A stretch of DNA of 64,000 nt from an uncultured delta proteobacterium (GCA_963826785.1 CAWGYD010000001.1:256001-320000), one strand, 5' to 3'; counted from the stretch's first letter, positions 7,732-34,594 are shown. Numbers and translations are program-made. Notes: generated by a model not told the origin, from the sequence alone.

Positions 7732-8566
7732 TTATTCGACCGAAATTTCGGCATCTTCGATGATGACCGGGTATTTGAGCCCGAATCCGAAATCCCGGTC
7801 CACGGAAACAGTGCCGTTGATCAGGACCGTATCTCCAACCTTTGCCGTACCGGTCGTCGTGACGATCAGGTCGTTGGCGCCTTCCTCGCCGGTGCCGTCC
7901 TGCACGTGGAGCCAGTTTTTTCCCATGATATCTGCGGTGAATTTGACCACCCGGGCCCGGATCTTTACTTTTTTTCCGGCCAGGCTTTCCCGCTGGGTGA
8001 TAATTTCAGACACCGTCTGCCCGCCTTGTGCCTTTTGAATGGACTCCTGCTTCAATCCCGGCATCCGGGGCCGCTCCGCCCATCATGGGCGAGGGTGTCA
8101 TCTGCCCGTCCGCCGGCTCGCCGATGGGGGGATGTCCTTCGGGCAGCGCCGTTTCCGCCGGGTTTGCCGACGGTTCTCCTTCCTTGCGGATCTGGCCCAC
8201 AAAATAGATCATGTCAAAATCGCGGTTAAGCGTTTTGCTGTGGAAATCCGCCATGGGCATTCCGGGCGGCACCTCGACCACATCACCGGCCTTGCCGTTG
8301 AAGACGGGGACTGCCACCCAGACTTTTTTCGTACCCGTATCGATCTGGACGTAGGCGTATCTGCCGGTATCGATCTTCTCCACCACCTCTCCTTTAAATG
8401 GCTCCGACATTTCGCCGGCATTTTCCGAAGCCGGCTGATCGCTGCCGGCGGATTTCGCGGACGACTTTCCATCCGTCCCGCCGGTCACCGGGTTGCAGCC
8501 GGCAAGGATCGTCAGTGACAGAAGCGCCAGCATGCACGCCAGCCAATGGTGAGATATTCTTTTCAT
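7732..8566 (-). CDS. Lipoprotein with two OB-fold domains and an LPEGHPP linker (indel near 8045)
   Basis: RBS AAGGAGG; lipobox LAGC; G.V.E....Y.Y.......WVA and VVKF...IMGKNWLH.QDG motifs. ORFs 8006-8638 and 7732-8064 join as IEAG-SIQKAQGG after removing one base. Confidence 0.75.
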
Positions 8567-8583
8567 TTTTATCATTCCTCCTT

Positions 8584-10294
8584 TTATTGGGGGTAATTTT
8601 GTGACTGATGCGCTTTTCCGTGGCATTTTAGAAAACATTGCCCCCGGAAGCGGCCGAGATCATTATATTCAAGCCGTCCCGTGTCATCGGGCATGACGAT
8701 GGTCCGATCAAAATTGATGAGATGGCTGTTGCGGATGGAATTTCCCTGCATGTAATTGATGCCGTGGGGATCATGACAGGCCGAACAGGGCGTCTTTTGA
8801 TCCACCACATGCGTCTTGTGCGGGAAGCTTTCATCATTCAGCAGGGTCGCCCGGCTGTGGCAAGTATAGCACAGGGCGTAGCTGGAGGGGGACTCTATCG
8901 TGTAATCATCGGTGACATACCGGTCGGTGAGCAGATGCGGCCAGTCCGATCCGTGGGGTCCCTTGGGTGCGGAGGGATCGCTGCTGCCATGACAGTCCGA
9001 GCAGGTGATGGTGCTGCTGACGGTATAGGGCGGCAGCAGGCTTAACACATCCGGGTTTTTTCCCCGGACTTCCACCGGGTGAAAGGAAGGATTGGCCGGA
9101 TCAAATTCCAGCCGGGTGTTGACCTGATCAATCTGCCGGGCAACGTTTAGCGTATCGACGACATTGTTGTCGCCGTGGCATTTGAAGCAGATTTCATATT
9201 CATAGCGGGCTTCGGGCAGCATCTGGCCGGCCCCGGACATGCCCGATGCCCCCCGGGTCGCCCCCGATACCCGGGAGCCGTCCATGGACGGATCGGCGTT
9301 TGCCTGGTGGGGATCGTGGCAGTCGCTGCATTCAACATGTTTTTGGACGCCCCCCGATGCGAAATTTTCGCCCGGATCGTGAACGCCCGTATAGGCATCC
9401 ACGGGATGCCGGTACCGCTTGGTGATGACCGACGCGATATCGGTGGCGGCCACCTTGCCGTCATGGCAGGCAAGGCAGTTGTCCTCTTCATACACGAAGC
9501 GCAGCAGCCGCTCGATTTTCTCCTGCAGAATGGGGCCGGTGGCAATTTTCACATCCGTTTTCGGCGACGGTCACGTAGTCGGTATTCGGCCAGAGCGTAC
9601 CGGACCGGTCCAGTACCGCAGGGGAGCGTGAATGGGAAGAGGCGTTCCAGCCCTTTTCGTCATGGCAGGTAATGCACAGGGATGATCCCGTATTGTCCAT
9701 CACCAGAAACTGGCCGAACGTGTCATCATGGGGGTCATGGCAGGTGATGCACTGCAGCACGCGATTATTTTCGAGCCGGATTTCCCGGGGGAGCGTGGAC
9801 GGATCCCTGATCTCCCGGTTCTCCAGGGAAAGTCCGGTATCGTAGACAAATGAAACCGGATGGTCATCGGACAGGTCCGTGCCCAGTCCCGAGGGCCGCT
9901 GCTCGGGCAGATACCGGATGCCGCCCCGAAAAGGGATCTCGGTTTCCCCCGCAGCGGTCGCGCCAAGCGCAATGGTGCCGTCGTGGCAGCTCAGGCACAT
10001 CCGGGAAGATCCGGTGGGCTGCCCCACGTCGGCGGTGAGGGTGGAACTGTAATAGGGGGTATAATGGCTTTCATTGACGCTGCGGTTCCACAGATACGGC
10101 ATGTTCGAGCCTTCCCGGTGGGGAATGTGGCAGAAAATGCATATCCTCTCTTCCGATGAAGCGGTAATGGCGCCGGGGCCGCTGATGGACAGGTTGTGCC
10201 GGGTCGCGCGTATGTTTCCGCCCAGGGCGGACGTGGATAAACAGCACAGGAACAGGGCGAGGCCCGCAAGTTTTTTGTTTTTCATCCGTTTCAT
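8584..10294 (-). CDS. ~12-heme cytochrome c with an OmcE-like N-terminal tetraheme domain (indel near 9515)
   Basis: Signal peptide; CIFCH, CLSCH, CITCH, CITCH, CENCH | CLACH, CSDCH, CFKCH, CSDCH, CYTCH, CSACH, CFLKCH. The two ORFs join at HSAGEN/ERLL. Confidence 0.85.
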
Positions 10295-11328
10295 TTCAGG
10301 GCATCTTCTTTCAGGTATTTAAATACCTGGATCCGTTTATTGCTTGAATCCGACACGTAGATATAATCATTTTGATCGATGTAGATCCCGGTGGGAAGCC
10401 AGAATTCTCCGCTCCCCGAGCCGTGGTTGCCAAAGGCCATCAGCAGGCGGCCCTTCGGGTCAAACATCTGGACATTGTCGAAGAGCGCATCCACCACATA
10501 GAGATTGCCGTCGCTGTCGGCTGCCACACCCTTGGGCCTGGCAAAGGTCCCGGGCGCATCGCCCATCCGGCCAAAGGCGGTTTGAAACGCGCCTGTGCGG
10601 GAAAACACCTGGACCCGGGCATTTAGCGAGTCGGACACGATAATGTCGCCGGTGGGTGATGTGCATATGTGGGTGGGATAGTGCAGCCGGCCGTTTTGCG
10701 ACCCGCTGCCGCCAAATGATCCTTTCGGGGAAAGGGTTTTCAGGTCGTATCTGAATACCCGGGAAAGAAGCGTGTCCACCACGAGCAGTTCCGATGTCTG
10801 CTTATTGACGGCAATCCCGGTGGGCCGTTTGAACACATCGCGGCCCAGCTCCGCAACGAATGTGTCCCCGCGGTCCTTGAATATCCTGACCACGGCATCT
10901 TTCGAGTCGGTGACGTAGATCCGCCCCCCGTCATCTATGGCAATATCCACCGGGGAGGCCGGCAACGACTGTGCCGGGGAGAAGGAAGAATAGCGGTTCC
11001 CCTTTGCATCGAACACATGGACCTTCTTCAGGAAGGTATCGACAACATAAAGCCTGCCGTCGGCGTCGGATGACACGCCATAGGGGGAAACAATGGATGC
11101 CCCCGGTCTGCCGCCGATATAATCGACCAGTTTTTTAAACACCCCGGGTGCGATCCCGGCATCTTCCGGTCCGGATATGGTGTCAACAAATTCGATGCGC
11201 TTTGTCTCCGGCGGTTTCGGCCAGAAGAGATCCGCCCGCGGGCGCAGAGGTTCCGCGTGCTTGACGCATCCGGCCGCAACTGCCCATATGATCAGTGCCG
11301 CCGCGAATATAGGGATCATCCTGCGCAT
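10291..11328 (-). CDS. NHL-repeat six-bladed beta-propeller lipoprotein
   Basis: Lipobox AAGC; repeated P.G.A.D..G.LYV.D..N.RVQVF blades; ATGA overlap with the next gene. Confidence 0.9.
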   Translation of the reverse strand: MRRMIPIFAAALIIWAVAAGCVKHAEPLRPRADLFWPKPPETKRIEFVDTISGPEDAGIAPGVFKKLVDYIGGRPGASIVSPYGVSSDADGRLYVVDTFLKKVHVFDAKGNRYSSFSPAQSLPASPVDIAIDDGGRIYVTDSKDAVVRIFKDRGDTFVAELGRDVFKRPTGIAVNKQTSELLVVDTLLSRVFRYDLKTLSPKGSFGGSGSQNGRLHYPTHICTSPTGDIIVSDSLNARVQVFSRTGAFQTAFGRMGDAPGTFARPKGVAADSDGNLYVVDALFDNVQMFDPKGRLLMAFGNHGSGSGEFWLPTGIYIDQNDYIYVSDSSNKRIQVFKYLKEDALK

Positions 11329-11335
11329 GACCGGG

Positions 11336-13306: not shown

Positions 13307-13380
13307 CGGTTCATTTATCGCCCATGGTCTTTCAGCTTCTCACGAGATGGAAACTGCGGGTTCATCGAAATTCAAGCCGG

Positions 13381-14121
13381 CTACTCAGTCTTTTTGCAAT
13401 CCACGGGGGACAAATTTTCACCACTCGGGTCCGGCTTCAAAAAAGCCGTATGTTTTTCTTCCATGTAGTCTTTCTTCAACATAAACCGGTCTTTCCCCAG
13501 GTGGACATTGTGGCACGACAGGCACGGTTTGGGTTGATCTGCATCCTTGATGCATTTTGCAGCGCCGATTTTATTGCCTTCATTGTGGCAGCTGACGCAC
13601 AAGCGGTCCGGATCGTCATTGAGCCGAAAAGGGTACCGGCTCTGATGGGCCGCGTGGCACGCCAGGCATTTTCCCTCGGCTGAAAGCTTTTGCAGATACA
13701 GCCCCCTTTGGATCGCCCACTCGGGGGACAGGTCCTTGTGACAGGTTTGGCAGAGCTTTTGGGCCGGGGCCACCAGGGGGCCCGGCTTTCCCCCGCCGCT
13801 TCTGAAAATGCCGTCCCAGCTGTTCCCGAAAATGGGGGTGGAAAAGGCGGAGGCCCCTTCATGGCAGGCCGCGCATTTTCTTCCGATATAAGGTTTGTGA
13901 GAAACCAGGGGGCGCTCGAGCACCCCGGCGTCGGCGGTCTGCACGACCGTAGATGCCGGGGTTTGGGCTTCCAGGGGCTTGGGTTTTTCGGCGGAAATTT
14001 CCTCTTCAGGAAACAGGAAGCGAAAGGCCGCACTTTCAGGATGCTTCTGGCACCCTGGCGTCAGAAACATCAAGACGCCCGTAAAAACAGCGAGGGCAAA
14101 AATGCTTATCTGCTTATCCAT
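13381..14121 (-). CDS. Pentaheme cytochrome c lipoprotein (paired CXXCH type)
   Basis: Lipobox TPGC; CAACH, CQTCH, CLACH, CVSCH, CLSCH; immediately upstream of the barrel. Confidence 0.85.
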   Translation of the reverse strand: MDKQISIFALAVFTGVLMFLTPGCQKHPESAAFRFLFPEEEISAEKPKPLEAQTPASTVVQTADAGVLERPLVSHKPYIGRKCAACHEGASAFSTPIFGNSWDGIFRSGGGKPGPLVAPAQKLCQTCHKDLSPEWAIQRGLYLQKLSAEGKCLACHAAHQSRYPFRLNDDPDRLCVSCHNEGNKIGAAKCIKDADQPKPCLSCHNVHLGKDRFMLKKDYMEEKHTAFLKPDPSGENLSPVDCKKTE

Positions 14122-14194: not shown

Positions 14195-15271
14195 TCACCG
14201 CCCTATGCTCTGGTTTTCCGGGAGCGTATCGCCGACCCATTTTCCGAATCCATAGACATTGAGTTTGCTGGATCCGAACATGCTGGTGACATAAACGAGG
14301 TACTCGATTTTAAAATTCGGGGAGGCAAATTTGGAAAAATAGCCGACATTGGCGTAATCGATGGCGATGCCGGCAGGAAGATACAGGCTGCCCGGGGCGC
14401 TGCCGGAGCCGCCGAAAAAGAGCAGCAGCCGGCTCTGATCATCAAAGATCTGCACGTTCTCAAAGGCGGCATCCACCGCATAGAGATTGTTCGCTTTATC
14501 CACCGCCAGCCCTTTGGGCCGCGCAAAACCGCCGATCTGGTCGCCGTGGAACCCGATGGTCCGGCGCAGATCACCGTCGGGGGAGAGCACCTTGACACGG
14601 AAGTTGAAGGCGTCGTTGACAAAGACCTCGCCGCCCGGCCCCACGGTGAGGTGGGAGGGTTTGAAAAAATCCCCTTTTTTCCCCACGGCCCTGATCAGGC
14701 CGCCGGTGTCCTTATCCAGGATGAACAGCTGCTCTTTATCGATATCGATCACATACACCCGGTTTCCATGCACCGCCACATCCACCGGCTTTTCAAATAT
14801 CTCCGCATTGCCGTAGGCCCTCAGAAATTCGTTGTTCCGGTTAAAGACCACCACCTGTTTTCGCTGCATGTCCGCAACGTATTTGAGGTCGTCATCTGAA
14901 ATCCAGATGCCGGAAGGATTGCCCAGGCTTCCCATTCCGCTGTCATCGATGAAGGAAAGGGTCTGATCCGCCAGATCAAGCACCACGATTTTTCGGTAGA
15001 CCCGGTCCAGGACGTAAATTTTGCCCTTTGAAGACCCCACATCATAGGGCCGCCCCAGTTTTTCATTGTCGGGTTTGCCCAGGATGAACTCCTGAAGGGC
15101 ACTTTGCTTTTTGCCCAGGTCGTGGGCGTCCGTTATGGAATGGAGAAACTGCAGCCGCGGTTCCTGGGGCAGCGGCGGGTAGTATATAGGATTTTGATGC
15201 ATCCCCTCCCTGGGCACGGAGGCGCACCCGATGAAGACGATAAACAGTGAAAACAGGAAGATCTTTTTCAT
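14195..15271 (-). CDS. NHL-repeat beta-propeller lipoprotein
   Basis: Lipobox FIGC; YYPP.P..PR.QFL N-terminal motif; FARPKGLAVD..NLYAVDA blades. Confidence 0.9.
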   Translation of the reverse strand: MKKIFLFSLFIVFIGCASVPREGMHQNPIYYPPLPQEPRLQFLHSITDAHDLGKKQSALQEFILGKPDNEKLGRPYDVGSSKGKIYVLDRVYRKIVVLDLADQTLSFIDDSGMGSLGNPSGIWISDDDLKYVADMQRKQVVVFNRNNEFLRAYGNAEIFEKPVDVAVHGNRVYVIDIDKEQLFILDKDTGGLIRAVGKKGDFFKPSHLTVGPGGEVFVNDAFNFRVKVLSPDGDLRRTIGFHGDQIGGFARPKGLAVDKANNLYAVDAAFENVQIFDDQSRLLLFFGGSGSAPGSLYLPAGIAIDYANVGYFSKFASPNFKIEYLVYVTSMFGSSKLNVYGFGKWVGDTLPENQSIGR

Positions 15272-15288: not shown

Positions 15289-15948
15289 TTATTTGTCGTG
15301 ACAGGTCAGGCAAAGGGCCGACCCTGTATTGTCCTTGATCAGCAGTTTGGTTCCCGGGACCGCCCGGGTGTTGTGAACGTCATGGCAGGATGAACATTCC
15401 ATCCGGCTTTGAAAAAGCATATCGTCATGAATGGTCCCGCTGCTGCCGACCAGGCCCGAAAGCTTGGCCAGCGGGTCGTAAAGCTCACCGTCCTGGGTGG
15501 CCAGAGAGGTGTCATAAACAAATGAAATGGGATGATCATTGCTCAGGTCGGTGCCGATCAGGACATCTCCGAACAGATAAACGGTCCCGTTTCGGATATC
15601 GCCGAAATTTTCCAGGGCCACGGTCCCGTCATGGCAGGAGAGGCAGATTTTGGAAAGCCCGTCCGGCTGACTGCTGACATTCGCATCCATGGTGGGGGAG
15701 CGGGTGCTGTTATACATGGTGTAGACCTCCGTGGACAGTTCATGATTCCACAGCGGGGCCGGAAGGGGTTTGGTGTGATGGGGCGTGTGGCAGGGCTTGC
15801 AGATTTCCCCGCTTTCGTTCCACAGATACCCGCGAAAGTCATGGGCGGATCCGACGATGGTCCCCGCCAGTGCGACAGACGAACAGACGAGCAGCAGAGA
15901 CAGTATGGCCGCCGGTATTTTTCTCTTCATCTTCAACTTTATCCGCAT
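15289..15948 (-). CDS. omcE: OmcE-like tetraheme cytochrome c (candidate nanowire subunit)
   Basis: RBS AGAGGA; Sec signal ending ALA; motif series HD..., ICKPCHTPH, PLWN, CLSCHDG, GTDLSNDHP, ECSSCHDVH, GSALCLTCHDK-stop matches my recollection of Geobacter OmcE. Confidence 0.8.
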   Translation of the reverse strand: MRIKLKMKRKIPAAILSLLLVCSSVALAGTIVGSAHDFRGYLWNESGEICKPCHTPHHTKPLPAPLWNHELSTEVYTMYNSTRSPTMDANVSSQPDGLSKICLSCHDGTVALENFGDIRNGTVYLFGDVLIGTDLSNDHPISFVYDTSLATQDGELYDPLAKLSGLVGSSGTIHDDMLFQSRMECSSCHDVHNTRAVPGTKLLIKDNTGSALCLTCHDK

Positions 15949-16099: not shown

Positions 16100-17101
16100 T
16101 TACATTTGGTGACATTCCTTGCACAGGTTTTCCGGCAGCCGATGCCGGTATTTGCTGTCCGCCCCCTTGGCCCCGGGCCGATCCTCCGGGATGACCCCTT
16201 TCTGGTGGGGGTTGTGGCAGGTGATGCAGGTCATCTCGCCCTTTTCATCCAATGGGAGCCTGACCTGATATTTTTCCTCCATGTGTTGAATCCGCTTCAT
16301 TCCATCCGGGGAGGGCTTGATGCCCATGTGATCGGCATTTCCGGAATGGTTCCCGGCAATCCGGTGGCACCGGCGGCACATGGTTTCGATATTGCCGATG
16401 AACTTGACGTCCTTGAAGGTCGCATGCTTTTCGTCGGGTTTCTCTTCGTGGCAGATCAGGCAGTTTTGAATGATGATCTCGCCGTTCTCATCGATCTGGT
16501 GATGGGGGTCGAGCTTCTGGTAGTTTTGTTCGGCATGGCATTTATAGCAAAAATCCGTCCGCCTGGGATAAGGGGCGCCGCGCAGGGAATTGCGGTCAAA
16601 CAGCCGCTTTTCGCACTGCAGGAAAACGTTGTGGCAGGTGTTGCAGGTGAGCCGTCCCTCCTGCAGCGGAAAATCGGCCGGCATCCGTTTTTTCTTTTCG
16701 GGCGACGGCGCGATGTCGAAGGGGTGGATGTACTCGGCCGGGGCTTCGGCATGACAGCGGCATAACCGTCCATAATCGGCCTCGAACTTGAGCCAGGGCT
16801 GTCCGCTCCCCTTGACGGGCGTGGTTTCATGGCATTCGCTGCAATATTGTCCGGTGTAATGGATATTGGTGGCGGCCGTGACGCCTTCGTTTACAAACGT
16901 GAAGTCAGGGGCAAAGCGGGGCGCTTCTGCCGCCGCCGTCTCCGGCGATGGGCCAACGTCCGCATCTTCATGATAACTTTGCGTCGAAACGGATTGGCAG
17001 GACACCATCATCAGGCAGAAGGCCAGGGTGATGAGGCGCGTTCTCTTGAACATGCCCAGGAGACGGCATCTGTGGTTATGCAAATACGCTTTTTCTGTCA
17101 T
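16100..17101 (-). CDS. Octaheme cytochrome c, probable lipoprotein (7 CXXCH + 1 CXCH); paralog of 33701-34594
   Basis: MMVSC lipobox; CSECH, CRCH, CNTCH, CYKCH, CLICH, CRRCH, CITCH, CKECH. Confidence 0.9.
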   Translation of the reverse strand: MTEKAYLHNHRCRLLGMFKRTRLITLAFCLMMVSCQSVSTQSYHEDADVGPSPETAAAEAPRFAPDFTFVNEGVTAATNIHYTGQYCSECHETTPVKGSGQPWLKFEADYGRLCRCHAEAPAEYIHPFDIAPSPEKKKRMPADFPLQEGRLTCNTCHNVFLQCEKRLFDRNSLRGAPYPRRTDFCYKCHAEQNYQKLDPHHQIDENGEIIIQNCLICHEEKPDEKHATFKDVKFIGNIETMCRRCHRIAGNHSGNADHMGIKPSPDGMKRIQHMEEKYQVRLPLDEKGEMTCITCHNPHQKGVIPEDRPGAKGADSKYRHRLPENLCKECHQM

Positions 17102-22432: not shown

Positions 22433-23184
22433 TTTGTTTCCGATCCCTCCCGCAGGTAAATTTTCTGGAGCTCCGGGTCGCTCATGATTTTGTCATAATG
22501 AAGGCGGTACTCTTCTTTCATTTCTTCCTCATCGATGAGTCCGGTCAGCCACATGTTGTCAATGGGAAACTTGTGCGGCCGCAGGTGAATCTCATATAAA
22601 TGCCAGACCATCACCGCCAGGCAGGCCAGTATGGCTTCCATCCCGTGCACCAGGGAAGCGATGTCGACGAAAAATTTGTCCCAGGCGGATTCAGACCATA
22701 ACATCAGGCCGGTAACAGACATCAACGTGGTGCCGACAATCAGGGCCATGTATTCCGCTTTGTGCTTGTAGGAGAACCGGTCAAATGCCGGCGGCTGATC
22801 TTTAAACCCGATCAGGTACGCCATATTGTGTAAAAATTCTTTCATATCGCGCGGCCGGGGCATCATGTCCTTGAACCAGCGCCGTCCGGCCGGCTTGAAG
22901 ATCAGATAATAGATGTGGTAGGTGCTCACGATGATCATGAGGGTGCCGAAGACGCGGTGCACCACCCCCCGGGCAATAAAAACGGGCTCCTTTGCGCTTC
23001 CGAGAAAGTGAAACGCCTGCTCGGGGAGCCAGACCATGAAACCGGTGAAGGCCAGCATGAAAAAGCAGACCACAAATATCAGGTGCTGTACTTTTTCGCT
23101 GGAATTCAGCCGGACAAAATACCGGGAAACGCCGGAAGGCTTATTCTCCCATTGGATATCGCTGTGACTAATGTTGCGGGTCAT
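22429..23184 (-). CDS. Di-heme cytochrome b (FdnI/CbcB-like; module 3)
   Basis: 4 TM with conserved His: KVQH, VHR, YH, VHGMEA, WHLYEIH; FDRFSYKHKAEY loop. Confidence 0.9.
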   Translation of the reverse strand: MTRNISHSDIQWENKPSGVSRYFVRLNSSEKVQHLIFVVCFFMLAFTGFMVWLPEQAFHFLGSAKEPVFIARGVVHRVFGTLMIIVSTYHIYYLIFKPAGRRWFKDMMPRPRDMKEFLHNMAYLIGFKDQPPAFDRFSYKHKAEYMALIVGTTLMSVTGLMLWSESAWDKFFVDIASLVHGMEAILACLAVMVWHLYEIHLRPHKFPIDNMWLTGLIDEEEMKEEYRLHYDKIMSDPELQKIYLREGSETK

Positions 23185-24457: not shown

Positions 24458-25313
24458 CTTCGCTCATCCCGGGATGCAGCATCCGCGGGACGTGGAATTT
24501 GGTATAGTCCCTGATCATTCCGACAACTTCCGTGCTGACCAGCATATCGGTCCTTTTTTTGGAATAGCCCAGGGCTTCGAAGGGCAGCAGCGGGTCCTGT
24601 TTGCGGTGGCAGTCCTCACAGAGATACGGCTTTTCGTTGATGAATTTGTGAATGATCTTCTTGGCCTTGGACTTCTGGCGCTCGGACAGGGTTTTTTCCG
24701 TTTTCTGGTATTCTTTTGCAAATTCGATCCGGTCCGGGTTGTCCATCCGTTGGATTTTGCCATCGACCCGTTCAAAAGGGATGATTTTCGCGTGGTATCT
24801 TCCCGGGGCCACGCCTTCCTTGATGGGGCTTTCGATGATCTGACCGGTTTTTCGGTCGTACCATTTAAAGACGCCGGTTTTCTGGTCGCCCTCCAGCCGG
24901 ACATGGCATGTCTCGCAGGAGATGAAAGCCGAATGCATATTCCCGAAGGCCCGTATTTCCTTCTTTTCGTCATGGGGGATATCGCCGTGGCACTCCACGC
25001 AGGATGAACGGTTATCGGGGGCCATGTCATAATCGATGTGATGGAAATGACCCTTGATCTTCATCTCCTCCAGAACCCGGTACCCCAGGTAGTGCTTCAC
25101 CTTGTCATCGCTTTCCAGGATGATCTTTTTAAAGGACTGGGCCTCTTTTTTTTCTTCGAGCCGGGCCGTCAGTGAATCGGTCTGATCGAGCACTTCCCGC
25201 TCATGGTATTCTTCGAAAAGATGACCGAAAGTGATATTCCAGATCACGACCATGAAGAACACGGTCATGGCCATGAACGCCAGTATGTACACTTTGAATA
25301 AAAAATTTTTCAT
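24429..25313 (-). CDS. Membrane-anchored triheme cytochrome c (module 2)
   Basis: N-terminal TM; GHFHH, CVECH, MHSAFISCETCH, CEDCH. Confidence 0.85.
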   Translation of the reverse strand: MKNFLFKVYILAFMAMTVFFMVVIWNITFGHLFEEYHEREVLDQTDSLTARLEEKKEAQSFKKIILESDDKVKHYLGYRVLEEMKIKGHFHHIDYDMAPDNRSSCVECHGDIPHDEKKEIRAFGNMHSAFISCETCHVRLEGDQKTGVFKWYDRKTGQIIESPIKEGVAPGRYHAKIIPFERVDGKIQRMDNPDRIEFAKEYQKTEKTLSERQKSKAKKIIHKFINEKPYLCEDCHRKQDPLLPFEALGYSKKRTDMLVSTEVVGMIRDYTKFHVPRMLHPGMSEDEAAGITGK

Positions 25314-25328: not shown

Positions 25329-26150
25329 CTAATTTTCAAGGGGGGGTGCTGCAGGAGCCCCATGCGGAGGACGTATTTCATCTTCAAACCCCTCCCGTTT
25401 CATGACTTCGACATAGTATTCATAATGTTCTTCCACCATCAGCTCCTCGGAAAGGTACCCGGTCAGAAAGACGGTTCCCATGGGGAAGACGGACATTGAA
25501 AAATGGACGTTGTACCAGTGCCACAAAAACAGGAACAGGGCGGCCAGAAGCGCCTCGTCGCTGTGGGCGATCAGCGCAAAACTGATGACCTCGCCGGGCA
25601 GGATCTTCGTTGCCAGTTCCTGTCCCCACATGATGATGCCCGAAGACCCGATGATGACAATCCCCCAGAAGGGGGCCCAGTAATCGAATTTTTCCTTCCA
25701 GTTGAACTGGGTCCCCATGGGCCGCTGGTCGGTCAAAAACAACAGATATTTCAACAGGGCGAATATATCCCTGGCATCCTTCAGGCTGGGGATCAGCGGC
25801 TGCCGCAGAACGGCCTTGATCATCGAAACCGGACCCAGTTTCCCGCTTTTCTTCAAGGGCACAATCTCGCCGGTATAGAACACGTACGCCAGGTACCCGA
25901 TGTGATAGGTGAACAGAAGCAGCAGGGTGACCCCGGCAAACCGATGAATGATCGGCGCCAGGTGGATCCCGCCGAACAGGCTGTAGAGATGCGGCGCCCA
26001 GAAGGTATCATGAAACTTGAGCGGCATGCCGGTCAAAACGAGCGTGATCACACAAGAGGCCAGAATGATATGCTGCAGCCGTTGATTGACGGTAAACCGG
26101 AAAAAGTATTTCCTGCCGTCCTTGATTTTGATGACGTATTTCTTCTCCAC
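25329..26150 (-). CDS. Di-heme cytochrome b (module 2)
   Basis: RF...QRLQH, LTGMPLKF, IHR, FNWKEKFDYWA, AHSDEALLA, WHWYNVH. Confidence 0.9.
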   Translation of the reverse strand: MEKKYVIKIKDGRKYFFRFTVNQRLQHIILASCVITLVLTGMPLKFHDTFWAPHLYSLFGGIHLAPIIHRFAGVTLLLLFTYHIGYLAYVFYTGEIVPLKKSGKLGPVSMIKAVLRQPLIPSLKDARDIFALLKYLLFLTDQRPMGTQFNWKEKFDYWAPFWGIVIIGSSGIIMWGQELATKILPGEVISFALIAHSDEALLAALFLFLWHWYNVHFSMSVFPMGTVFLTGYLSEELMVEEHYEYYVEVMKREGFEDEIRPPHGAPAAPPLEN

Positions 26151-26153: not shown

Positions 26154-27206
26154 CTATTCCTCCGATTTCTTTTTCCGGGAAAACAGTCTTCTGGCCAGGT
26201 CCAGAAACATGATTCCGGTCAGGGGCAGCAGGGTTCCGCCGGTCAGCATGAGAAAAAAAGCGGAAAAGTAGAATTCCGACGGACTCTTTTCTTTGTCCAG
26301 TTCCGGATGGACATCATACTCGGCCAGTTTCGGAGAGGCATTGGGATGGCAGTCCACCATCCTGCAGCTCTTGATCTTGTTTTGTTCATTGGTGATGGAG
26401 GCCGGGTTTTTATAGCTGAGCATCTGGTGGACCGATTCCCCGGTGTTGACGTGGCAGTTGAGGCAGTCCGGGATTCTTTCATCCAGGTAATTTGCGGCCT
26501 TGCCGTGAAAGGTCTTCTCATAGGAAGCCACCGCCTTGTTGGACAATTCATGCCGCGCGATGAGCTGGTCATCATCGTGGCACCGGGCGCAGACTTCGGC
26601 GATATTCTTGGGGCTTCGGATGGCGTGCAGCCGGGTCGTGATGTGGTTGTAGAACCGGAAAATGAATTCATCCTTTTTGTGGCATACCCGGCATCTTCCC
26701 AGGGCGATTTCTGAAATGCCCGGGCGCACCTTCTTGAAAAAGGAGAGCGGCCGGTACAGGGGATTGTCATGGCAATCCTTGCAGACCGGATAGTCCTCGG
26801 CATATTTTTTGGGCTTTCCATCCGCATCCACCTTGCTGTGAACACTTCTGGACAAAAATTTCGCCGCGTCCTCATGGGAAAATTTCTTTTCGCTGGTGGG
26901 TTCAATGATGTGGCACTGGGCCAGGCAGTCCACCTTTTTGACATCCTCATGGGGGATTTTCTTGATGTCCGCATGGCAGCCTTCACACTTGACGTTGGCA
27001 TGAACGCTGTTGTTGAAAACCTCTTCGTTGACAAAGAGCAGTTTCATGTCTCCATTTTCATCGATCCGGCTCAATCCCGGATACTTATGGCATAACAGAC
27101 AGTTGCCGACATCCGCCGCCTGCACGGGGCCGGACAGGAGCAAAACGGCCAGCAAAACGGCGGCCGCCATGCCGGCGGCATATTCAAGACGGTATTTTTC
27201 TATCAT
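26154..27206 (-). CDS. Octaheme cytochrome c with C-terminal TM anchor (module 2)
   Basis: Signal ending VQA; CLLCH, CEGCH, CLAQCH, CKDCH, CRVCH, CARCH, CLNCH, CRMVDCH; C-terminal TM. Confidence 0.9.
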   Translation of the reverse strand: MIEKYRLEYAAGMAAAVLLAVLLLSGPVQAADVGNCLLCHKYPGLSRIDENGDMKLLFVNEEVFNNSVHANVKCEGCHADIKKIPHEDVKKVDCLAQCHIIEPTSEKKFSHEDAAKFLSRSVHSKVDADGKPKKYAEDYPVCKDCHDNPLYRPLSFFKKVRPGISEIALGRCRVCHKKDEFIFRFYNHITTRLHAIRSPKNIAEVCARCHDDDQLIARHELSNKAVASYEKTFHGKAANYLDERIPDCLNCHVNTGESVHQMLSYKNPASITNEQNKIKSCRMVDCHPNASPKLAEYDVHPELDKEKSPSEFYFSAFFLMLTGGTLLPLTGIMFLDLARRLFSRKKKSEE

Positions 27207-27274: not shown

Positions 27275-29856
27275 CTATTCCGGCCGCCTGCCCTCGAGCA
27301 TCTCTCTTTTGGCAGGCGAGTGAAAGTACGTGTAGCGCCAGATGGCGGTTTCGCCATGACAGTCGATGCAGACCGCCTTGTCGCTGGATGTCCGCAGAAA
27401 ACTGGTGTCGGCATTACCCTCGGTGTTTTTGCCCGGGCCTTTTTGCCTGACCCGGTGGTCCCACATGAAGAAAGAATGGCAGGAAGAACATGACAGATCG
27501 CCGACATGGCTTTCTTTCCAGCCGCTGTCAAACAGCTTGATATGATTCGCGGGCAGGGCATGGGAGCGCATGATGTTATTCATGAGCTGTCCGGGCGGAT
27601 GTTCCGCCACCGCCGGGATCTTTTTTTCCGCGATTTGCCCTTTGGAATGGCAGCCCGTACACAGGCCGTTCATGGGATGCTGATGTTCACCTGAAGGGCC
27701 ATAAGCCCTGGCCCACAGCAGATGTTTTTTATCACTGTGATGGGCGGCATGGCACGCCCCGCACGGTCCAGATTCGGCCACCGTCTGCCCCTGCTGATTT
27801 GTCGCGGCGGGCGCGGTCACGAACAGGTCGTGGTCGGTTCCGGTCAGAAGTGCGGTATCTTCGTGGCAGACCACGCAAAGGTCCGGGGAAGGGGAGGCCG
27901 GTTTTCTCAGGAAACTGGTTTTCGCATTCCCCTCAATGTTTTTGACCGCTGAACCCTCTGCCGGTGAGGGCCGCGCAGGCATTGCCGTCTTCGGGTTTCC
28001 GGACGACCAGATATGGGGATCATGGCAGGTGCGGCACCTGATGATGTCGCCGTTTTCTCTGCCGCCCTCCGGGTTGAACAGGGGCAGCAGTCCACTGACG
28101 CTTGCGGACGGCGGGATTTGCGGCCCCTTAGAGACGACATCGACCGGATGATCGTTTTCTCCCGCCCGTTTTTCTTTTGCCGGGCCATTTTGGGAGTGGC
28201 ACCCGGTGCAGTATGGCCGGGCGGATTTATTTCCATCGGGGAGATTCCGGGCCCACAGGGTTTTATCCAGGGCGTTGTGCGGGATATGGCACGCGCCGCA
28301 GGGCCCGGCGACTTGCGCGGTAAAGCCCTGGATGTTGGTCGCCTCCGGTGCGGTCAATGCCAGGTTGTGATCAAATGACAGCAGCTGCTCTTTATCCCGG
28401 TGGCATGAAACGCACAGCGCCGATGTCTTGCTGGCGGATATCCTTAAAAAACTGTTGGCGGCGTCTCCTTCGGCGTCTTTTCCGCCCCTGACGGTCCGGT
28501 GCGGCCGGATCCCATTGATGAAGGTTGTGGCAGGTGGCGCACTGGACCGTGCCGCCGGCCCGGGGGTGGCCGTCTTTGGCAAAAACCGGAAGTTTATCCG
28601 TGAGCCCGGGCCGGGAAGGTTTCGGGTCCGTTTTTGAAACCGGACCCATATCGATGGGGTGGGAATATTTGCCGATGCCCTTGATCTTGTCTGTTTTTGT
28701 TTCACCGTGGCAGGACAGGCAGGTCCGGGAGGCCGGGTTGCCGGGCCCGAGCTTCCGGGCCCAGAGCCGGTATCCGGCCGAATTGTGGGGGATATGGCAG
28801 GCCCCGCACGGCCCGGATTCGGACAGCGGCTGTCCTTTCAGATTGGTTTCTTCGGGCAGGGTCATCCTCAGGTCATGCTGGGTTTTTACGATGCTTCGTT
28901 CCTTGTGGCAGGTCATGCAGAGCTGTGAATCGCGGTTATCCATCAGGGTTAAATTGCGTCCTTTCGCCCCGTGGACCCGGTGGCAGGTCTGGCAGGTGAC
29001 CGTATCTTTTTTTTCTGCTTCGACGGCCCCCAGCGCAAACAGCCTGTCCGGGATCTTGAGTTTATCCGTGTGCACCGGGTGGCTGTGGGTGCGCGTAAAG
29101 TCGGCTTCATTCACATGGCAGGTCTCGCACAGCCCGGAATCGATATTGCCGAGGCGAAGAAAGGACATGGGGCCGGGTATGGCTTCCTCGAGGGGGGTTG
29201 AAGGCTTTGCCGTTTCCCCGCTGTGCGGCGAATGGCACGTACCGCAGTAGATTTCGTCCTTGTTGCTCAAGGTCAGCGCATCCGGGATCTTCACATTCTC
29301 GGATGGCTTTTTGAAGGTGGTGTGGTTGTTTCCTTTCCACACCACATGGCGCGAATCGAGAACATAGCCGTCATGGCAGCTGTAACAGATCTCTTCGGAG
29401 CTGACGATCCCCTGGGTGTCTTTCATCAAGACATTTCCCGGCTGAAATTCGATCAACGTCTCCCGGTTGGTTCTAAACACATCCAGCCACATGACATGGC
29501 ACATGGCGCATTCTTTTTTAGACGATTTTTCAAGTGCGGCCAAAGCGGGCGGTGCAGCTGACCAGAATGAGCATGCATACAACGGAAAAGATATGGAGGC
29601 CGGGGCGGCCCGACACCCCCCTAAAGCCCCCCTCGAGGGGGGAATGGGGATGGGCTTGCCCCCCAAGCGGAGAAAGCTTTAAAAATTCCCCTATGATTGG
29701 AGAAATCTTTTTGAACCCGCTTTTGAGCGGGGAAATCTTCTTGAATCCCCCTTTGAGGGGGGAATTAAAGGGGGGTGTCCCCCCGGATGGATAAAAGCCC
29801 CCCCCAATGTGAGCTGCCTTCTCAGCTATGGTGCGACAGTGTAAAAAGTGTTTCAT
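27275..29856 (-). CDS. Giant ~18-heme periplasmic cytochrome c (indels near 29562 and 28487)
   Basis: 9 CXXCH in 28392-29666 plus 9 in 27275-28705. ATG at 29856 overlaps the NHL stop (ATGA). Signal peptide LHIFSVVCMLILSAAPPALA is restored after one indel. Confidence 0.85.
29612..29779. repeat. Palindromic REP-like element with five 30-bp units, read in frame within the cytochrome N-terminus
   Basis: Termini GACACCCCCCT and AGGGGGGTGTC are inverted; units start at 29621, 29651, 29681, 29711 and 29741 and translate SPLKGGFKKI-like decapeptides. Confidence 0.75.
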
Positions 29857-30800
29857 TGCGCCACTTTCAACACACGTATCCGGTTGGCGCGCATTTCCAC
29901 CACGTGGAGCCGGTTTTTCGCATCGAAGGCAATCCCCACGGGGGTGGTAAACTCCCTTTTGGTGCCGTTGTCGCAGACCACCCCGATAAACCCGCCCAGA
30001 TCCGTGAACGCCTGGATGCATCCCATGAAGCTGTCCGTCACAAACACCCGTCCGGATCCGTCGACGGCCACGCCCTTGGGCTTGAACAGTTCCCCCGGGC
30101 TCACCCCCCAGGTGCCGATTTCGGTGATATAGTTGCCGTAGGGATCAAACTCCTGGATTCTTGTGTTCAAGACATCGACGACAAATATCTGGTTGAATTC
30201 GTTTACCGCCAGGATGCCGGGGTAGCGGAACTTGCCCCGCACTTCGCCGAATCCGCCCCATTCGAACATGAAGGTGCCGTCCTGCTGGTGGACCTTTATC
30301 TTGTGGTTGTCGTTGTCCGAGACATACAAAAAATTCTTGAGATCGATGGCCAGCACATCCACGGGATCGGCCGGTTTTTCGCCCGCCGACGTCTTGACCG
30401 GGAACATGTATAAAAAGGCGCCGTTTGAATCAAACACCTGGATCCGGTGATTGCCGGTGTCCGCCACAAAAACCCGACCCTGTTTTGACACATCGATGCC
30501 CATGGGGAACTGAAACTCGCCCGGCCCGCTCCCGTTTTTGCCGAAGGTGAGCCGCACGGCACCCCGGCTGTCCATCACAATGATCCGGTTATTGACGCCG
30601 TCCACAAGGTACATGTCCCCCTGCGGGCCGATGGCCAGGTCGCTCGGCTGGTCGGCGCCCGAAGGCTCAAGGGTTGCAAGAACTTCGCTGCTGACGCACT
30701 CCATGGCCGCCAGCGGGTTTGCCGGGACCAGCAGCAGAAAGACAATTGCGGCCGCAGGGACCAGAAGATCCCTGATCCTGATGTGAAAGGGGCGTTTCAT
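29853..30800 (-). CDS. NHL-repeat beta-propeller protein (exported); paralog of 19590-20591
   Basis: Signal peptide; FQFPMGIDV...VFVADTGNHRIQVF and LFKPKGVAVD blades. Confidence 0.9.
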   Translation of the reverse strand: MKRPFHIRIRDLLVPAAAIVFLLLVPANPLAAMECVSSEVLATLEPSGADQPSDLAIGPQGDMYLVDGVNNRIIVMDSRGAVRLTFGKNGSGPGEFQFPMGIDVSKQGRVFVADTGNHRIQVFDSNGAFLYMFPVKTSAGEKPADPVDVLAIDLKNFLYVSDNDNHKIKVHQQDGTFMFEWGGFGEVRGKFRYPGILAVNEFNQIFVVDVLNTRIQEFDPYGNYITEIGTWGVSPGELFKPKGVAVDGSGRVFVTDSFMGCIQAFTDLGGFIGVVCDNGTKREFTTPVGIAFDAKNRLHVVEMRANRIRVLKVAQ

Positions 30801-31684
30801 CGTCCGTCCTGATCCTGATTCTGGTTCTGGTCCTGTGCGTTGGATCCCATTTGATCCGATTGCTTGAACAAGTCGGGGAGATAGAATTCATCGTACTTGG
30901 TGATCATCCCCTTGATGCTCAGGTTTTCCAGATCGGTGATCCGTTTTTGGGAAAACCCCAGTTTCGTAAAATCGAGGATGCTCTTTGATGAATGGCAGGT
31001 CTGGCATTCCGGCCCCTTGGGGCGGATGTCCACGTGAAATTTTTTGGTGATCCCCCCCCGCTGTTCGGGGGTGAGCTGATCCCGGATCTTTACATAGTCC
31101 TTTGCCAGTTCCGCCTTCTGCATGTGCAGGGTGGGGGAAAGATTTGCGCCGTTTTGGTAAAAGGGGGCGATTTTTGAAAGATGATCCACCGCACGCTTCA
31201 ACTCCCCGGTTTCAGGGTCGTAGGCGGTACCGAAAAAGGGGCCTTCCGGGTGCTCCTGGATCGGTGAATACCATTTGTATACAATGGTTTCGCCTTCCTT
31301 GACGTCTAAATGGCATGTCTCACAGGCGAAGAAATTGGTGTGCATGTTCAGCATGGCCCGGATCTTCTTGGTTTTGCCGTGGGGCAGCTTGGAATGACAG
31401 ATGAAGCAAGTCGGTTGGAGCGCTTCCGGAGCCTCCGGCAGATCGGCAAAGTGATGAAAGTGCCGGTGCTCCTCCATTTTCTTTTGCTGTTTGAATTCTT
31501 TGAGGATCGGTGATTCCTTTTCCTGGAATTTTTCCACCAGCGGGATCAAAAGCCCGGGCCCGTGGCTGGAAAAGGCAAGGTGGTTGACCACGCCGCCCAG
31601 CACGAAGAGGACCATGAACCACACGAAAAACCCGATCAGGTAAACCGGCCAGGGATGTTCCTGCCGTTTGGGGTCTCTATCCAT
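30797..31684 (-). CDS. Membrane-anchored triheme cytochrome c (module 1)
   Basis: RBS GGGGAGG; N-terminal TM; HRHFHH, CFICH, MHTNFFACETCH, CQTCH; KYDEFYLP. Confidence 0.85.
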   Translation of the reverse strand: MDRDPKRQEHPWPVYLIGFFVWFMVLFVLGGVVNHLAFSSHGPGLLIPLVEKFQEKESPILKEFKQQKKMEEHRHFHHFADLPEAPEALQPTCFICHSKLPHGKTKKIRAMLNMHTNFFACETCHLDVKEGETIVYKWYSPIQEHPEGPFFGTAYDPETGELKRAVDHLSKIAPFYQNGANLSPTLHMQKAELAKDYVKIRDQLTPEQRGGITKKFHVDIRPKGPECQTCHSSKSILDFTKLGFSQKRITDLENLSIKGMITKYDEFYLPDLFKQSDQMGSNAQDQNQNQDQDGR

Positions 31685-32597
31685 TGCCTCCCCCTTCCTG
31701 ATCCGCATATCCCAGTTCGGATAACAGCGACCGCATGTATTCACGCTCTTCGGGAATTTCAGACAGGTTGCGCAGGTATTCCAGGAAATGCTCTTCCAGT
31801 TGATGCTCCCGCGTGATCCTGCCTGTAAAGACCGTCCATTGGGCGGGGAATCTGCCCGGTACGAGATGCACATTGGACAGATGCCAGAACGCAACGACGA
31901 TCAGGGCCATGATGGCCTCGTCCGCATGCATGATCCTGGCCAGGTCCTGGACAAACGACGGGTCAAAGGGCCACAGCAGCGCCACATATTCCGGGAACAG
32001 CAGCGCCGTGCCGGCAAATATCAGGACAAAACTTCCCCATAAAATGGCCAGGTAATGGATCTTCTGCTTGTACATGAATTTTTCCATCCGGGGCCGGAAT
32101 GGCGCAAACCCGAGGAAGTATTTTACATCCTGTATCAGATCAAAAAGATCTTTGGGCATCGGCACCTGGGTCCGACGGATATCGAATTCTCTGGCGATCA
32201 GTTTTCTGGCGCTTCCCGCAGCGATGGTCAGCACATGGTACACGGATGCGGCGACCATCACGAAGGCGGCGCTCCGGTGGATCAATTGCGCCGTATCGAC
32301 GCCGCCGAAAAGAAAAATAACATAGGGCGACCAGAACACGTCGCTGTAGTGAAGCGGGATGCCGGTGGCGGCCAGTGCGATAAAGGTGGTGAAAATCAGG
32401 ATGTGCTGAATGACAATGTGCACCGAGTAGCGGGGGAGATCGCCCAGGGGATTGGATTTCACATATTTATAGATATCCCGGGGGATGTATCCCACGCCCG
32501 CCACATGGGTAAAGTAATCGGCCGGCCGGGTCTTCGTCAGGGCCGGGGCGGCAATCTCTTTGGCGGCGGCAGTCATCGGGGCTCCTTTTGCAGGCAT
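31677..32597 (-). CDS. Di-heme cytochrome b (module 1)
   Basis: VIQH, ATGIPLHY, IHR, YH, MHADEAIMA, WHLSNVH, EEHFLEY. Confidence 0.9.
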   Translation of the reverse strand: MPAKGAPMTAAAKEIAAPALTKTRPADYFTHVAGVGYIPRDIYKYVKSNPLGDLPRYSVHIVIQHILIFTTFIALAATGIPLHYSDVFWSPYVIFLFGGVDTAQLIHRSAAFVMVAASVYHVLTIAAGSARKLIAREFDIRRTQVPMPKDLFDLIQDVKYFLGFAPFRPRMEKFMYKQKIHYLAILWGSFVLIFAGTALLFPEYVALLWPFDPSFVQDLARIMHADEAIMALIVVAFWHLSNVHLVPGRFPAQWTVFTGRITREHQLEEHFLEYLRNLSEIPEEREYMRSLLSELGYADQEGGGNG

Positions 32598-32604: not shown

Positions 32605-33678
32605 TCATTTCGGTCTCTTCTGATTTCGCCAGCTGCTCCCGGCTTTTATTTTCATGCCGATGCCGTCTTTTTTCCGGCGGTACGTTTCCAGAAACAAGAG
32701 CCCCATGAGGCCGAATACGGTGCCATAGAGGATGATCCTGAGCACCATGTTGCTGATCAGAAACAGGATGGGATTACGCGGCTCATTAATGCTGGGGTGG
32801 ACGGCGATTTTGACGAAATGTTCGTTGATCCGGGTGTGGCAATTCTTGCAGGTGGCCTGCAGGTTATTTTCGTTTATCGAGGATTTCGGGTTGTCTTTTT
32901 TATAGATGTCATGAATCAGGCTGGAGGTATGGCAGCTGATGCAGTTGGCGGAATCGGAAGAGCCCAGCGTGGTCATCTTGCCGTGGATGGACTCCTTGTA
33001 GGTTTCGACCACTTCCAGGCCCGCGCCGGAAACCCCCAGCTGTTTCATCAGCGGGGCATTGGCGTGGCAGTTTTCGGCGCACAACGTCACGATCTCCTTT
33101 GAAGACCGGGAGGTCTTATGGCGCAGCCGGTGGGTGATGTGCCGGTAGGCCTCCGTCACCCCTTTTTTCTGATGGCAGTTCAGGCAGCGGTCCAGGGTTT
33201 TGCCATAGGAAATGATATTTTCGTCGACTCGTTTATACAGCGGATTCAAATGGCAGTACTTGCAATCCGGCTTGGATTGCTTCATCAGCGGCGAATCATC
33301 CGGTTTAATCGCGTGCACGCTGGTATTGAACACATCGATGATCTTCTGATGCGAAAAGTTTTTTTCCGCAAAGGGCGGCTTGATGTGGCATTCATTGGCG
33401 CAATTGACTTTTTCCGTCACCGGGTCATGGGGAAATTTCCTGATGTAGGTATGGCATCCCCGGCACTCCACTTCTCCGTGCAGGCTGTTTAAAAAAATAT
33501 GCTCATCCACCTGATAATTCCGCACCAATCCGTCTTCGCCGATTCTGCCCATGAACGGATATTTATGGCACATGAGGCAGTTTTCCTTGTCGGCGGCCCG
33601 GGCGTTCGAAAAACCGGATAAACCGGTCCCCAGAACCCCAAGCGACAATACTGCAATCAGGAGATATACCCGTTTCAA
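32605..33678 (-). CDS. Octaheme cytochrome c with C-terminal TM anchor (module 1; probable TTG start)
   Basis: Signal ending ARA; CLMCH, CRGCH, CANECH, CKYCH, CLNCH, CAENCH, CISCH, CKNCH; C-terminal TM. Confidence 0.85.
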   Translation of the reverse strand: MKRVYLLIAVLSLGVLGTGLSGFSNARAADKENCLMCHKYPFMGRIGEDGLVRNYQVDEHIFLNSLHGEVECRGCHTYIRKFPHDPVTEKVNCANECHIKPPFAEKNFSHQKIIDVFNTSVHAIKPDDSPLMKQSKPDCKYCHLNPLYKRVDENIISYGKTLDRCLNCHQKKGVTEAYRHITHRLRHKTSRSSKEIVTLCAENCHANAPLMKQLGVSGAGLEVVETYKESIHGKMTTLGSSDSANCISCHTSSLIHDIYKKDNPKSSINENNLQATCKNCHTRINEHFVKIAVHPSINEPRNPILFLISNMVLRIILYGTVFGLMGLLFLETYRRKKDGIGMKIKAGSSWRNQKRPK

Positions 33679-33700
33679 TGGTTCAGTTCCCTCGCTTGAA

Positions 33701-34594
33701 TTACATCTGGTGACATGCGATGCACAATTTGCCCGGCAGCCGGTGCCGGAACTTGCTGTCCGCCCCTTTGGCCGAAGGCTTGTCCGCGGCAATGACCCCT
33801 TTCTGATGGGGATTGTGACAGGTGATGCAGGTCATCTTGCCGTCTTTGGTCAGCGGAAGGATGATGTCATATTGCGCTTTCATGGCGTCCATCCGCTTGA
33901 GCGCTTCGGCCGACGGTTTGACCGCCGTGTGGTCGAAGTTGCCGGAGTGATTCCCGTTAATCTGGTGGCACCGCCTGCACAGGGTCTTGATATCCCCGAT
34001 GAAGGTGACTTCCTTGTAGGTCGCATTTTTTTCATCCGGCTTTTTCGCATGGCAATAAAGGCACATCCGGGTGTTCAGTTCGCCGTTGGCCGCTATCTGG
34101 TGATGCGCGTTTAATTTCTGGTAATCCGTACGGTCATGGCACTGGTAACAGAAATCCGTTTTCCGGGGGTAGGGCGCCCCCCGCAATGACTGCCGTTCAA
34201 ACAGGCGCTTCTGGCATTGACGGTAGACATCATGGCAGGTATTGCAGGTGAACTGACCGTCTTTTCTGGGAAATCCATCCGATATTTTTATTTTTTCGAC
34301 AGACGCCTGCACAATGTCCAGTGGATGGCAATAGCCGGGTGACATGCCGTGATGGCACCGGCACAACAGCTGGTAATCGCCATTGAATTTCAGGAAGGGA
34401 TCGCCGCCTTCAACCGGGGTCTTTTCGTGGCACTCGCTGCAGAATCGTCCGGTATAGTGTATGTTCGTATTCTCATCGACAACGCGGGTATCCGTCCGGG
34501 GGTTGATCTTTTCTGCTTCTTTTTCCCCGGGCAGGGACCGGCAGCCGCAAAAATACAAAAAGGCGATCAGAAGAATTATGGCTATGTTTCTCAT
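33701..34594 (-). CDS. Octaheme cytochrome c lipoprotein (7 CXXCH + 1 CXCH); first gene of the cluster
   Basis: Lipobox FCGC; CSECH, CRCH, CNTCH, CYQCH, CLYCH, CRRCH, CITCH, CIACH. Confidence 0.9.
   Translation of the reverse strand: MRNIAIILLIAFLYFCGCRSLPGEKEAEKINPRTDTRVVDENTNIHYTGRFCSECHEKTPVEGGDPFLKFNGDYQLLCRCHHGMSPGYCHPLDIVQASVEKIKISDGFPRKDGQFTCNTCHDVYRQCQKRLFERQSLRGAPYPRKTDFCYQCHDRTDYQKLNAHHQIAANGELNTRMCLYCHAKKPDEKNATYKEVTFIGDIKTLCRRCHQINGNHSGNFDHTAVKPSAEALKRMDAMKAQYDIILPLTKDGKMTCITCHNPHQKGVIAADKPSAKGADSKFRHRLPGKLCIACHQM

Follow-up and report, generated by a model that had tools for sequence, protein, structure and literature searches.

The smallest omcE cluster described in the Desulfuromonadia consists of OmcE, two propeller lipoproteins, a large beta-barrel and two multihaem cytochromes; its barrel is proposed to be a pore for secretion or an anchor and is not a demonstrated haem-filled conduit, and where OmcE filaments end at the cell and get charged is a question left open there, no anchor having been found inside omcE operons (PMC13712944). 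Geobacter needs CbcL and CbcBA for low-potential Fe(III) reduction (10.1101/2021.04.15.440034; PMC9129911). Cluster gc5 of Desulfurivibrio alkaliphilus (DA_2136-2141) comprises 9-haem, porin, 7-haem, 8-haem, 6(8)-haem and CbcL-like 3-haem genes, all six of which are upregulated on ferrihydrite (PMC12545173, supplement), and 6+2-haem c/b proteins are found beside porin-cytochrome genes (Dester_0351, Theam_0871, MtrH/MtoC; PMC4245776). Finally, the Oet/OmcS-type cluster is defined by a peptidyl-prolyl isomerase (PPIase), 16- and 26-haem cytochromes and OmcS/OmcX-like proteins (PMC10553843, PMC5539420, PMC8322314). These descriptions, and the comparisons below, refer to the open-access text of the cited papers and, for gc5, to the supplement. 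Here we analyzed a stretch of 64,000 nt (the window) from an uncultured delta proteobacterium (GCA_963826785.1, CAWGYD010000001.1:256001-320000; host assembly of 4.43 Mb in 11 contigs, 88% complete), whose minus strand carries, from position 34594 down to 7732, an island of 23 co-oriented genes in which three inner-membrane cytochrome modules are followed by an omcE cassette.

The initial annotation of this DNA had listed 23 co-oriented, often overlapping genes with ~114 haem c motifs. Both figures were confirmed, the gene count requiring that four genes be read across five frameshifts. The motifs comprise 104 CxxCH, 7 CX3-4CH, 2 CRCH and 1 conserved CX8CH (114 altogether, leaving out a second long-spaced match that overlaps a CRCH), where 200 shuffles of the residues averaged 0.55 CxxCH and never gave more than 3; the locus holds 104 of the 232 CxxCH of the genome (open reading frames with at least two motifs). 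Adjacent genes overlap or lie ≤74 nt apart with our start assignments, the sole exception being 151 nt 5′ of omcE. The gene types also agreed with that list (14 c-type and 3 b-type cytochromes, 4 NHL propellers, one barrel and one further lipoprotein), except for the OB fold given to the lipoprotein g23, which had no Pfam or PDB match; a PDB sequence search with a g23 relative likewise found nothing useful. Family searches of the locus proteins recognized no catalytic family among the 23 genes, as had been noted, but this is weak evidence for a wire, because NarGH and an octahaem tetrathionate-reductase-like domain are encoded elsewhere in the genome.

The locus is real and conserved and is probably an electron-transfer island. 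The best reading, to which we give an even chance, is a modular island that would lead electrons from menaquinol through b/c modules and periplasmic multihaem proteins to an OmcE filament and on to an extracellular acceptor. Three inner-membrane complexes, each made of a 7-8-haem c subunit, a cytochrome b and a trihaem subunit, would oxidize menaquinol, as family membership and gene fusions suggest. Transit through the periplasm would then fall to the two giant cytochromes (18 and 20 haems), the 6-haem protein and both 7-8-haem lipoproteins, and the omcE cassette would secrete the OmcE filament and anchor it through the large barrel, with the 11-haem g22 as candidate haem-bearing base. Instead of sulfate, the electrons could thereby reach Fe(III) or other minerals, humics or a partner cell.

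The downstream block is exactly the smallest omcE set of PMC13712944 plus one extra lipoprotein, g23. The g17 protein has matches to the OmcE proteins of both Geobacter (7TFS, E 8e-22) and Desulfuromonas (9YUQ, E 7e-19), contains four CxxCH and four distal histidines and keeps all eight OmcE haem-ligand histidines, which bears out its naming as OmcE-like. Two propeller lipoproteins (g18, g21), a predicted large barrel (g20) and two further multihaem cytochromes (g19 with 5 haems; g22 with 11+1, frameshifted) make up the rest. The AlphaFold model of g20 (pLDDT 85.8) has 28 counted barrel strands and an inserted beta domain; Foldseek ranked MtrB first (E 9e-11) with a TM of only 0.43, and a second structural comparison placed several large barrels about equal (Z 16-17). 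The best structural matches being outer-membrane barrels, g20 is predicted to be a large outer-membrane-type barrel, in line with the initial annotation. An MtrAB-type conduit is not matched, as g20 has no Pfam match and MtrB (PF11854) was not found in the genome. The downstream block thus stands as it had been described, with its OmcE-like protein, barrel and lipoproteins, but it is the omcE cluster already known. It differs from that of Desulfuromonadia in belonging to Desulfobacterales, in having neither the purHDE-ffh context nor flanking glycosylation genes, and in standing behind 16 genes for inner-membrane and periplasmic proteins.

The N-terminal domain of g22 keeps the eight OmcE histidine columns (one shifted in G304), and a ninth histidine stands ~9 residues after the last OmcE-type haem motif in 9/9 sequences aligned. 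This OmcE domain with its ninth conserved histidine makes g22 a candidate for the missing nanowire anchor, which would cap the OmcE filament and direct its chain of haems to the barrel. In the four relatives G194, G150, G251 and G304 (L017, L018, L023, L024), the gene after omcE is another OmcE-like one, with five haems, that resembles the 'leaky' family proposed in PMC13712944.

The upstream block is made up of three c-b-trihaem triplets, among which are scattered two NHL genes, the genes of 18-, 20- and 6-haem proteins and those of two 7-8-haem lipoproteins. Each module combines a c-type cytochrome of 7-8 haems with a cytochrome b of FdnI fold and a trihaem cytochrome anchored in the membrane. 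The b subunits align with six invariant histidines, and the model of g11 matches FdnI (1KQF_C; E 7e-6, TM 0.65/0.74), which supports their prediction as quinone-type cytochromes b; PDB sequence searches with g02 and g11 gave nothing useful, and the nearest Atlas clusters of the trihaem subunit are hypothetical proteins. Gene fusions of b with trihaem subunits in 8/29 loci, of c with b in G696 and G450, and of all three in an 897-aa protein of G612 point to three-subunit complexes, which probably exchange electrons with the quinone pool.

The three b paralogues share only 27-30% pairwise identity. In a tree of 40 rows (none dropped, the long-branch row G769 retained, midpoint root), the g08 clade is sister (98/97) to one with 9-haem CbcL-architecture fusions, g11 falls in a 98/95 group of CbcB-architecture b subunits having a 9-11-haem partner and a sigma-54 regulator nearby, and g03 represents a third lineage; the CbcL and CbcB labels of these clades rest on architecture per the papers rather than on named sequences. 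Recent duplication of the modules was rejected on the same identities and on the three separate clades. The modules are deeply diverged members of the CbcL/CbcBA superfamily, and one may speculate that their b subunits cover different redox potentials, like CbcL and CbcBA of Geobacter.

With CbcBA and CbcL of Geobacter sulfurreducens, the modules share an FdnI/HydC-type b subunit, four-helix as in CbcBA, and a multihaem c subunit with a membrane helix at its C-terminus; the histidine of that helix in CbcA (10.1101/2021.04.15.440034; PMC9129911) is present in g10 only and absent from g02 and g07. They differ by their membrane-anchored trihaem, by existing as three paralogues and by the lack of an adjacent BccR-like regulator. 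Whereas CbcL fuses a nine-haem domain to a six-helix b domain, the modules here are split and have 7-8 motifs. Orthology to the Geobacter genes was assessed by comparing architectures only.

Two of the remaining upstream genes show peculiarities. A CxCH motif (CRCH or CKCH) occurs in g01, g16 and 10/11 relatives compared; the homologue in G301 has eight CxxCH in place of seven, which suggests an atypical haem site. In the window at 29600-29800, two C/G-rich palindromic repeats extend the 5′ part of the 18-haem gene g06. An ad hoc pattern for them had 557 genome matches (both strands counted), and we take them to be repetitive extragenic palindrome (REP)-like.

The initial annotation inferred that every compartment of an extracellular electron transfer chain is encoded in one locus of a non-Geobacter host. 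Parts of the kinds named are present, but one-locus chains outside Geobacter are already published (PMC12545173, PMC4245776). Cluster gc5 likewise holds, in one locus of a dsr-bearing non-Geobacter host, 8-haem, 6(8)-haem and 'CbcL-like' 3-haem membrane proteins beside an outer-membrane conduit, with the architecture of module 2. Where the island has three modules and the omcE cassette, gc5 has a single module, in which b and trihaem apparently make up one gene, and a porin-cytochrome set; homology to it was inferred from gene order and haem counts. In a sample of 400 genomes of the phylum, this order and these haem counts recur in two genomes of one family, where a 9-haem, 468-aa, 7-haem run (a porin-cytochrome-like set) adjoins a module; proteins of this family are 31-49% identical to g16, g07, g08 and g09. 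The c/b proteins of pcc/mtr loci share the 6+2-haem c domain and the formate dehydrogenase (FDH)-type b domain beside an outer-membrane conduit, but they are single fused proteins next to porin-cytochrome genes, and the passages of PMC4245776 on them describe no nanowire cassette. Seep-SRB, HotSeep-1 and D. ferrophilus IS5, sulfate reducers too, have the Oet/OmcS-type cluster, which shares large multihaem cytochromes, propellers and a barrel. The island was rejected as such a cluster, since no PPIase is among its 23 genes and a verified OmcS relative had no tblastn match at E 1e-10 in the 88% complete genome. Because gc5 is already published, a quinone-to-surface chain in one locus is no new principle. 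The parts are of known kinds; what is new is the combination. We found no description of such modules joined to an omcE cassette in Desulfobacterales in the open-access literature text, without figures and the supplement of PMC13712944.

The distribution in relatives was surveyed across one set of 400 genomes belonging to the order, using a single-sequence query for the barrel, which can miss divergent barrels, and a profile for the trihaem family. The barrel was found in 13 genomes, the trihaem module in 22 and both in 12; the 12/13 compare with 0.7 expected under independence, a contrast that is overstated because the genomes are related. Modules and omcE cassette lie on one stretch in 9/13 barrel genomes, so the linkage of the two blocks is conserved in relatives of the order. 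Eleven of the 13 barrel loci were compared, leaving out G218 and G298 (barrel at the contig start); among the other two compared, the contig of G010 ends too early and G248 has its modules on another contig. G199, which with G180 matches the island most closely, carries the full set of three modules, ordered alike and at 53-81% identity, without g19. Within the host's own family, the barrel is present in only 2/24 relatives; the island is therefore patchy, by lateral transfer or loss as we infer. A single-sequence scan of the genome contigs found one locus only. In the phylum sample, the b profile matched 152 genomes and the barrel profile 15, and in G612 (C51) modules and omcE cassette are joined in a different gene order.

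Several observations weigh against a single, complete chain. Ten of the 22 module-bearing genomes of the order lack this barrel, so the blocks are separable, and the module of G248 is not on the contig of its barrel. Seven of these ten module-only loci were compared, and in five (G092, G108, G274, G361, G398; three end at contig borders) no conduit gene was recognized in the stretch read, G108 being a single-contig genome with modules and no recognized conduit nearby; the other two are G187 and G089, described below. The largest gap of the locus precedes omcE, and in G194 and G251 a sigma-54-type promoter and then a c-di-GMP-I-GGC (cyclic di-GMP) riboswitch stand directly 5′ of omcE (L017:506-598, L023:599-673). 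In D. ferrophilus, deletion of subsets of a different, Oet-type cytochrome cluster is reported to have left Fe(III) oxide reduction unimpaired. To these points are added the hydrogenases and the broken cytochrome genes considered below.

The separability, the single-contig G108, the gap and the promoter-riboswitch pair would also fit two independent neighbors, the modules and giant cytochromes serving as a periplasmic electron store or feeding reductases elsewhere, and the omcE cassette, separately regulated, perhaps serving attachment or cell-cell contact; OmcE bundles have been proposed in the literature to aid biofilm formation. We judge this unlikely. The blocks are only ~20-35 nt apart in G301 and G267, the single-sequence search of the order may have missed barrels, and the module repeatedly adjoins unrelated conduits: the porin-cytochrome-like set mentioned above, an OmcS cassette in G187, and a decahaem plus MtrB_PioB pair in G521, G612 and G641 of the phylum sample.

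The host is a Desulfobacterales sulfate reducer as judged from its sequences: the named close relatives of its DsrA (84-86% identity) are Desulfobacterales, including Desulfosalsimonas and Desulfosalsimonadaceae, and the non-Geobacter origin was thus correctly recognized. DsrA, DsrD, AprA, QmoC, QrcABCD, CcsB and NarGH are above family cut-offs in the genome, and an FDH-N-like enzyme is also encoded. Searches of the 88% complete genome found one NiFe hydrogenase, of cytoplasmic type, and neither FeFe nor periplasmic hydrogenases. As side observations, the genome (L120, L128, L098) has, beside NarGH, a cbb3-type subunit I-like gene adjoining a molybdopterin/NrfD set, and the octahaem tetrathionate-reductase-like domain is borne by a 10-haem protein.

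This background bears on the direction of electron flow. The absence of a recognized periplasmic hydrogenase also fits electron uptake, in which OmcE filaments would gather electrons supplied by a partner, by reduced minerals or by metal, while the modules would reduce menaquinone for sulfate or nitrate reduction. FdnI, the closest solved fold, reduces quinone. The sulfate-reduction and Qrc genes of the host, the finding of only a cytoplasmic-type NiFe hydrogenase and no FeFe enzyme, and dsrA in 15/16 barrel-bearing genomes tested point the same way, and a reverse CbcBA has been proposed in Seep-SRB2 (PMC10553843). We nevertheless consider inward flow fairly unlikely, as Qrc already serves periplasm-to-quinone transfer and gc5, of like architecture, is induced during Fe(III) reduction (PMC12545173). 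Moreover, the FDH-N-like enzyme and NarGH mean that the host is not an obvious obligate syntroph.

The conduit had been called putatively complete. Its parts are of the kinds claimed, but five frameshifts interrupt g06 (twice), g15, g22 and g23 in the assembly, and the broken genes include the three largest cytochromes. If real, they would mean that the island is decaying and the chain broken in this strain, which we regard as quite improbable. By hand count, 4/23 cluster genes are broken against 5/103 background genes (Fisher p=0.057), where one automatic rule gave 3/22 cluster loci against the same background (p=0.15). Loss of island parts does occur, as G089 has an omcE-like remnant and no barrel in the stretch read. 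On the other hand, the four genes are single open reading frames in relatives, their matched segments have no in-frame stops, and their identity to relatives (53-70%) is similar to that of intact neighbors. The gene after dsrA (dsrB by position) is likewise frameshifted, which points to assembly errors, and these are likelier than decay as the cause. Short contigs from one read run (0.05 of words) showed no indel at the break sites, none of the 8/25 listed pieces spanning one.

Table 1 Features of the island and of its upstream neighborhood in the window (frameshift positions approximate).
Feature	Position	Strand	Remarks
g01, 7 CxxCH + CRCH cytochrome	33701..34594	-	N-terminus lipoprotein-like by eye; 61% identity to g16
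g02, module 1 c subunit	32605..33678	-	6+2 haem motifs; no His in C-terminal membrane helix
g03, module 1 cytochrome b	31677..32597	-	FdnI/HydC family
g04, module 1 trihaem	30797..31684	-	N-terminal membrane anchor; homologue fused to g02 and g03 homologues in G612:C51
g05, NHL beta-propeller	29853..30800	-	signal-peptide-like N-terminus
g06, 18-haem cytochrome	27275..29856	-	frameshifts near 29.53k, 28.49k; presumed REP-like palindromes in 5′ part
g07, module 2 c subunit	26154..27206	-	6+2 haem motifs; no His in C-terminal helix
g08, module 2 cytochrome b	25329..26150	-	clade sister to b domains of CbcL architecture
g09, module 2 trihaem	24429..25313	-	membrane-anchored
g10, module 3 c subunit	23168..24412	-	6+1 motifs + CX8CH; conserved His in C-terminal helix, CbcA-like
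g11, module 3 cytochrome b	22429..23184	-	model matches FdnI 1KQF_C; groups with CbcB/BccR-architecture b subunits
g12, module 3 trihaem	21581..22432	-	membrane-anchored
g13, 5+1-haem cytochrome	20616..21557	-	no membrane anchor; N-terminal part c-subunit-like, C-terminal part trihaem-like
g14, NHL beta-propeller	19590..20591	-	Pfam
g15, 20-haem cytochrome	17076..19593	-	frameshift near 17.70k
g16, 7 CxxCH + CRCH lipoprotein cytochrome	16100..17101	-	
g17, OmcE-family tetrahaem nanowire subunit	15289..15948	-	4 CxxCH + 4 conserved distal His
g18, NHL propeller lipoprotein	14195..15271	-	Pfam and lipobox match
g19, 5-haem cytochrome	13381..14121	-	lipoprotein-like by eye; missing in relatives G199, G301, G267, G053
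g20, outer-membrane-type beta-barrel (predicted), 656 aa	11336..13306	-	~28 strands; inserted beta domain residues 377-455; C-terminal Trp
g21, NHL propeller lipoprotein	10291..11331	-	Pfam and lipobox match
g22, 11+1-haem cytochrome	8584..10294	-	OmcE-like N-terminal domain, ninth conserved His; frameshift near 9.51k
g23, lipoprotein without family match	7732..8638	-	frameshift near 8.05k
8-haem lipoprotein, outside island	48529..50686	-	frameshift near 49.57k
OmcA/MtrC-family lipoprotein, outside island	51059..53392	-	TIGR03507 383 bits, cut-off 209

The OmcA/MtrC-family gene and the 8-haem lipoprotein gene (48529-53392) lie 14 kb upstream of the island on the same strand. MtrC-like genes stand at the head of the island in G180, G199, G267 and G301; at 23-27% identity, the window's MtrC was rejected as their direct orthologue. 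A relative of the 8-haem lipoprotein (64-67% identical) is directly upstream of the g01 homologue in G180; a PDB sequence search with the window's 8-haem lipoprotein gave weak multihaem matches only.

Regarding regulation, neither the riboswitch nor the sigma-54 promoter seen before omcE in two relatives was detected at the corresponding position of the window, G199 or G304, and the window has no sigma-54 consensus upstream of g01 or omcE. A promoter scan of 7500-27000 gave 10 sigma-70-like sites (12.4 expected), and the same range has 40 terminator-like sites (26 expected), none of them between g16 and omcE; DNA alignment of the spacers before omcE was uninformative. No BccR-type sigma-54 response regulator is located beside the modules, the nearest sigma-54 activator being of the GAF type beyond the far end of the island (6099-7682, plus strand), convergent with it. 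In six relatives (L089:305-3897, L085, L091, L092, L082, L015), the modules have as neighbor a sensor histidine kinase bearing a single conserved CxxCH, in most of them together with a sigma-54 response regulator; the best matches in the host's own genome are 27-35% identical.

Elsewhere in the window, a c-di-GMP-I-GGC riboswitch (45303-45405, plus strand; 62.7 bits, gathering 59) lies upstream of a CehA/McbA-like metallohydrolase gene, hopanoid-associated hpnK, hpnI-like, hpnJ, hpnM-like and hpnN-like genes occupy 54320-63988, and a radical SAM gene (59336-60656) is divided between two frames.

From our analysis, uncultured sulfate reducers belonging to at least nine families of a single order are predicted to perform extracellular electron transfer, which is relevant to iron-sulfur coupling, to syntrophy and to corrosion. 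The analysis defines a CbcL/CbcBA-like complex of three subunits, apparently compatible with four kinds of conduit to the surface, and it offers an in-operon candidate for how OmcE filaments end at the cell and are charged, the question raised in the text of PMC13712944. More tentatively, and as something rather less likely than not, we propose that a lineage of otherwise ordinary Desulfobacterales sulfate reducers may respire or exchange electrons syntrophically via OmcE nanowires fed by an uncharacterized three-subunit quinone oxidoreductase with two haem arms, whose three ancient paralogues would be tuned to different potentials, possibly directions, and that the 11-haem protein would be the anchor of the filament.

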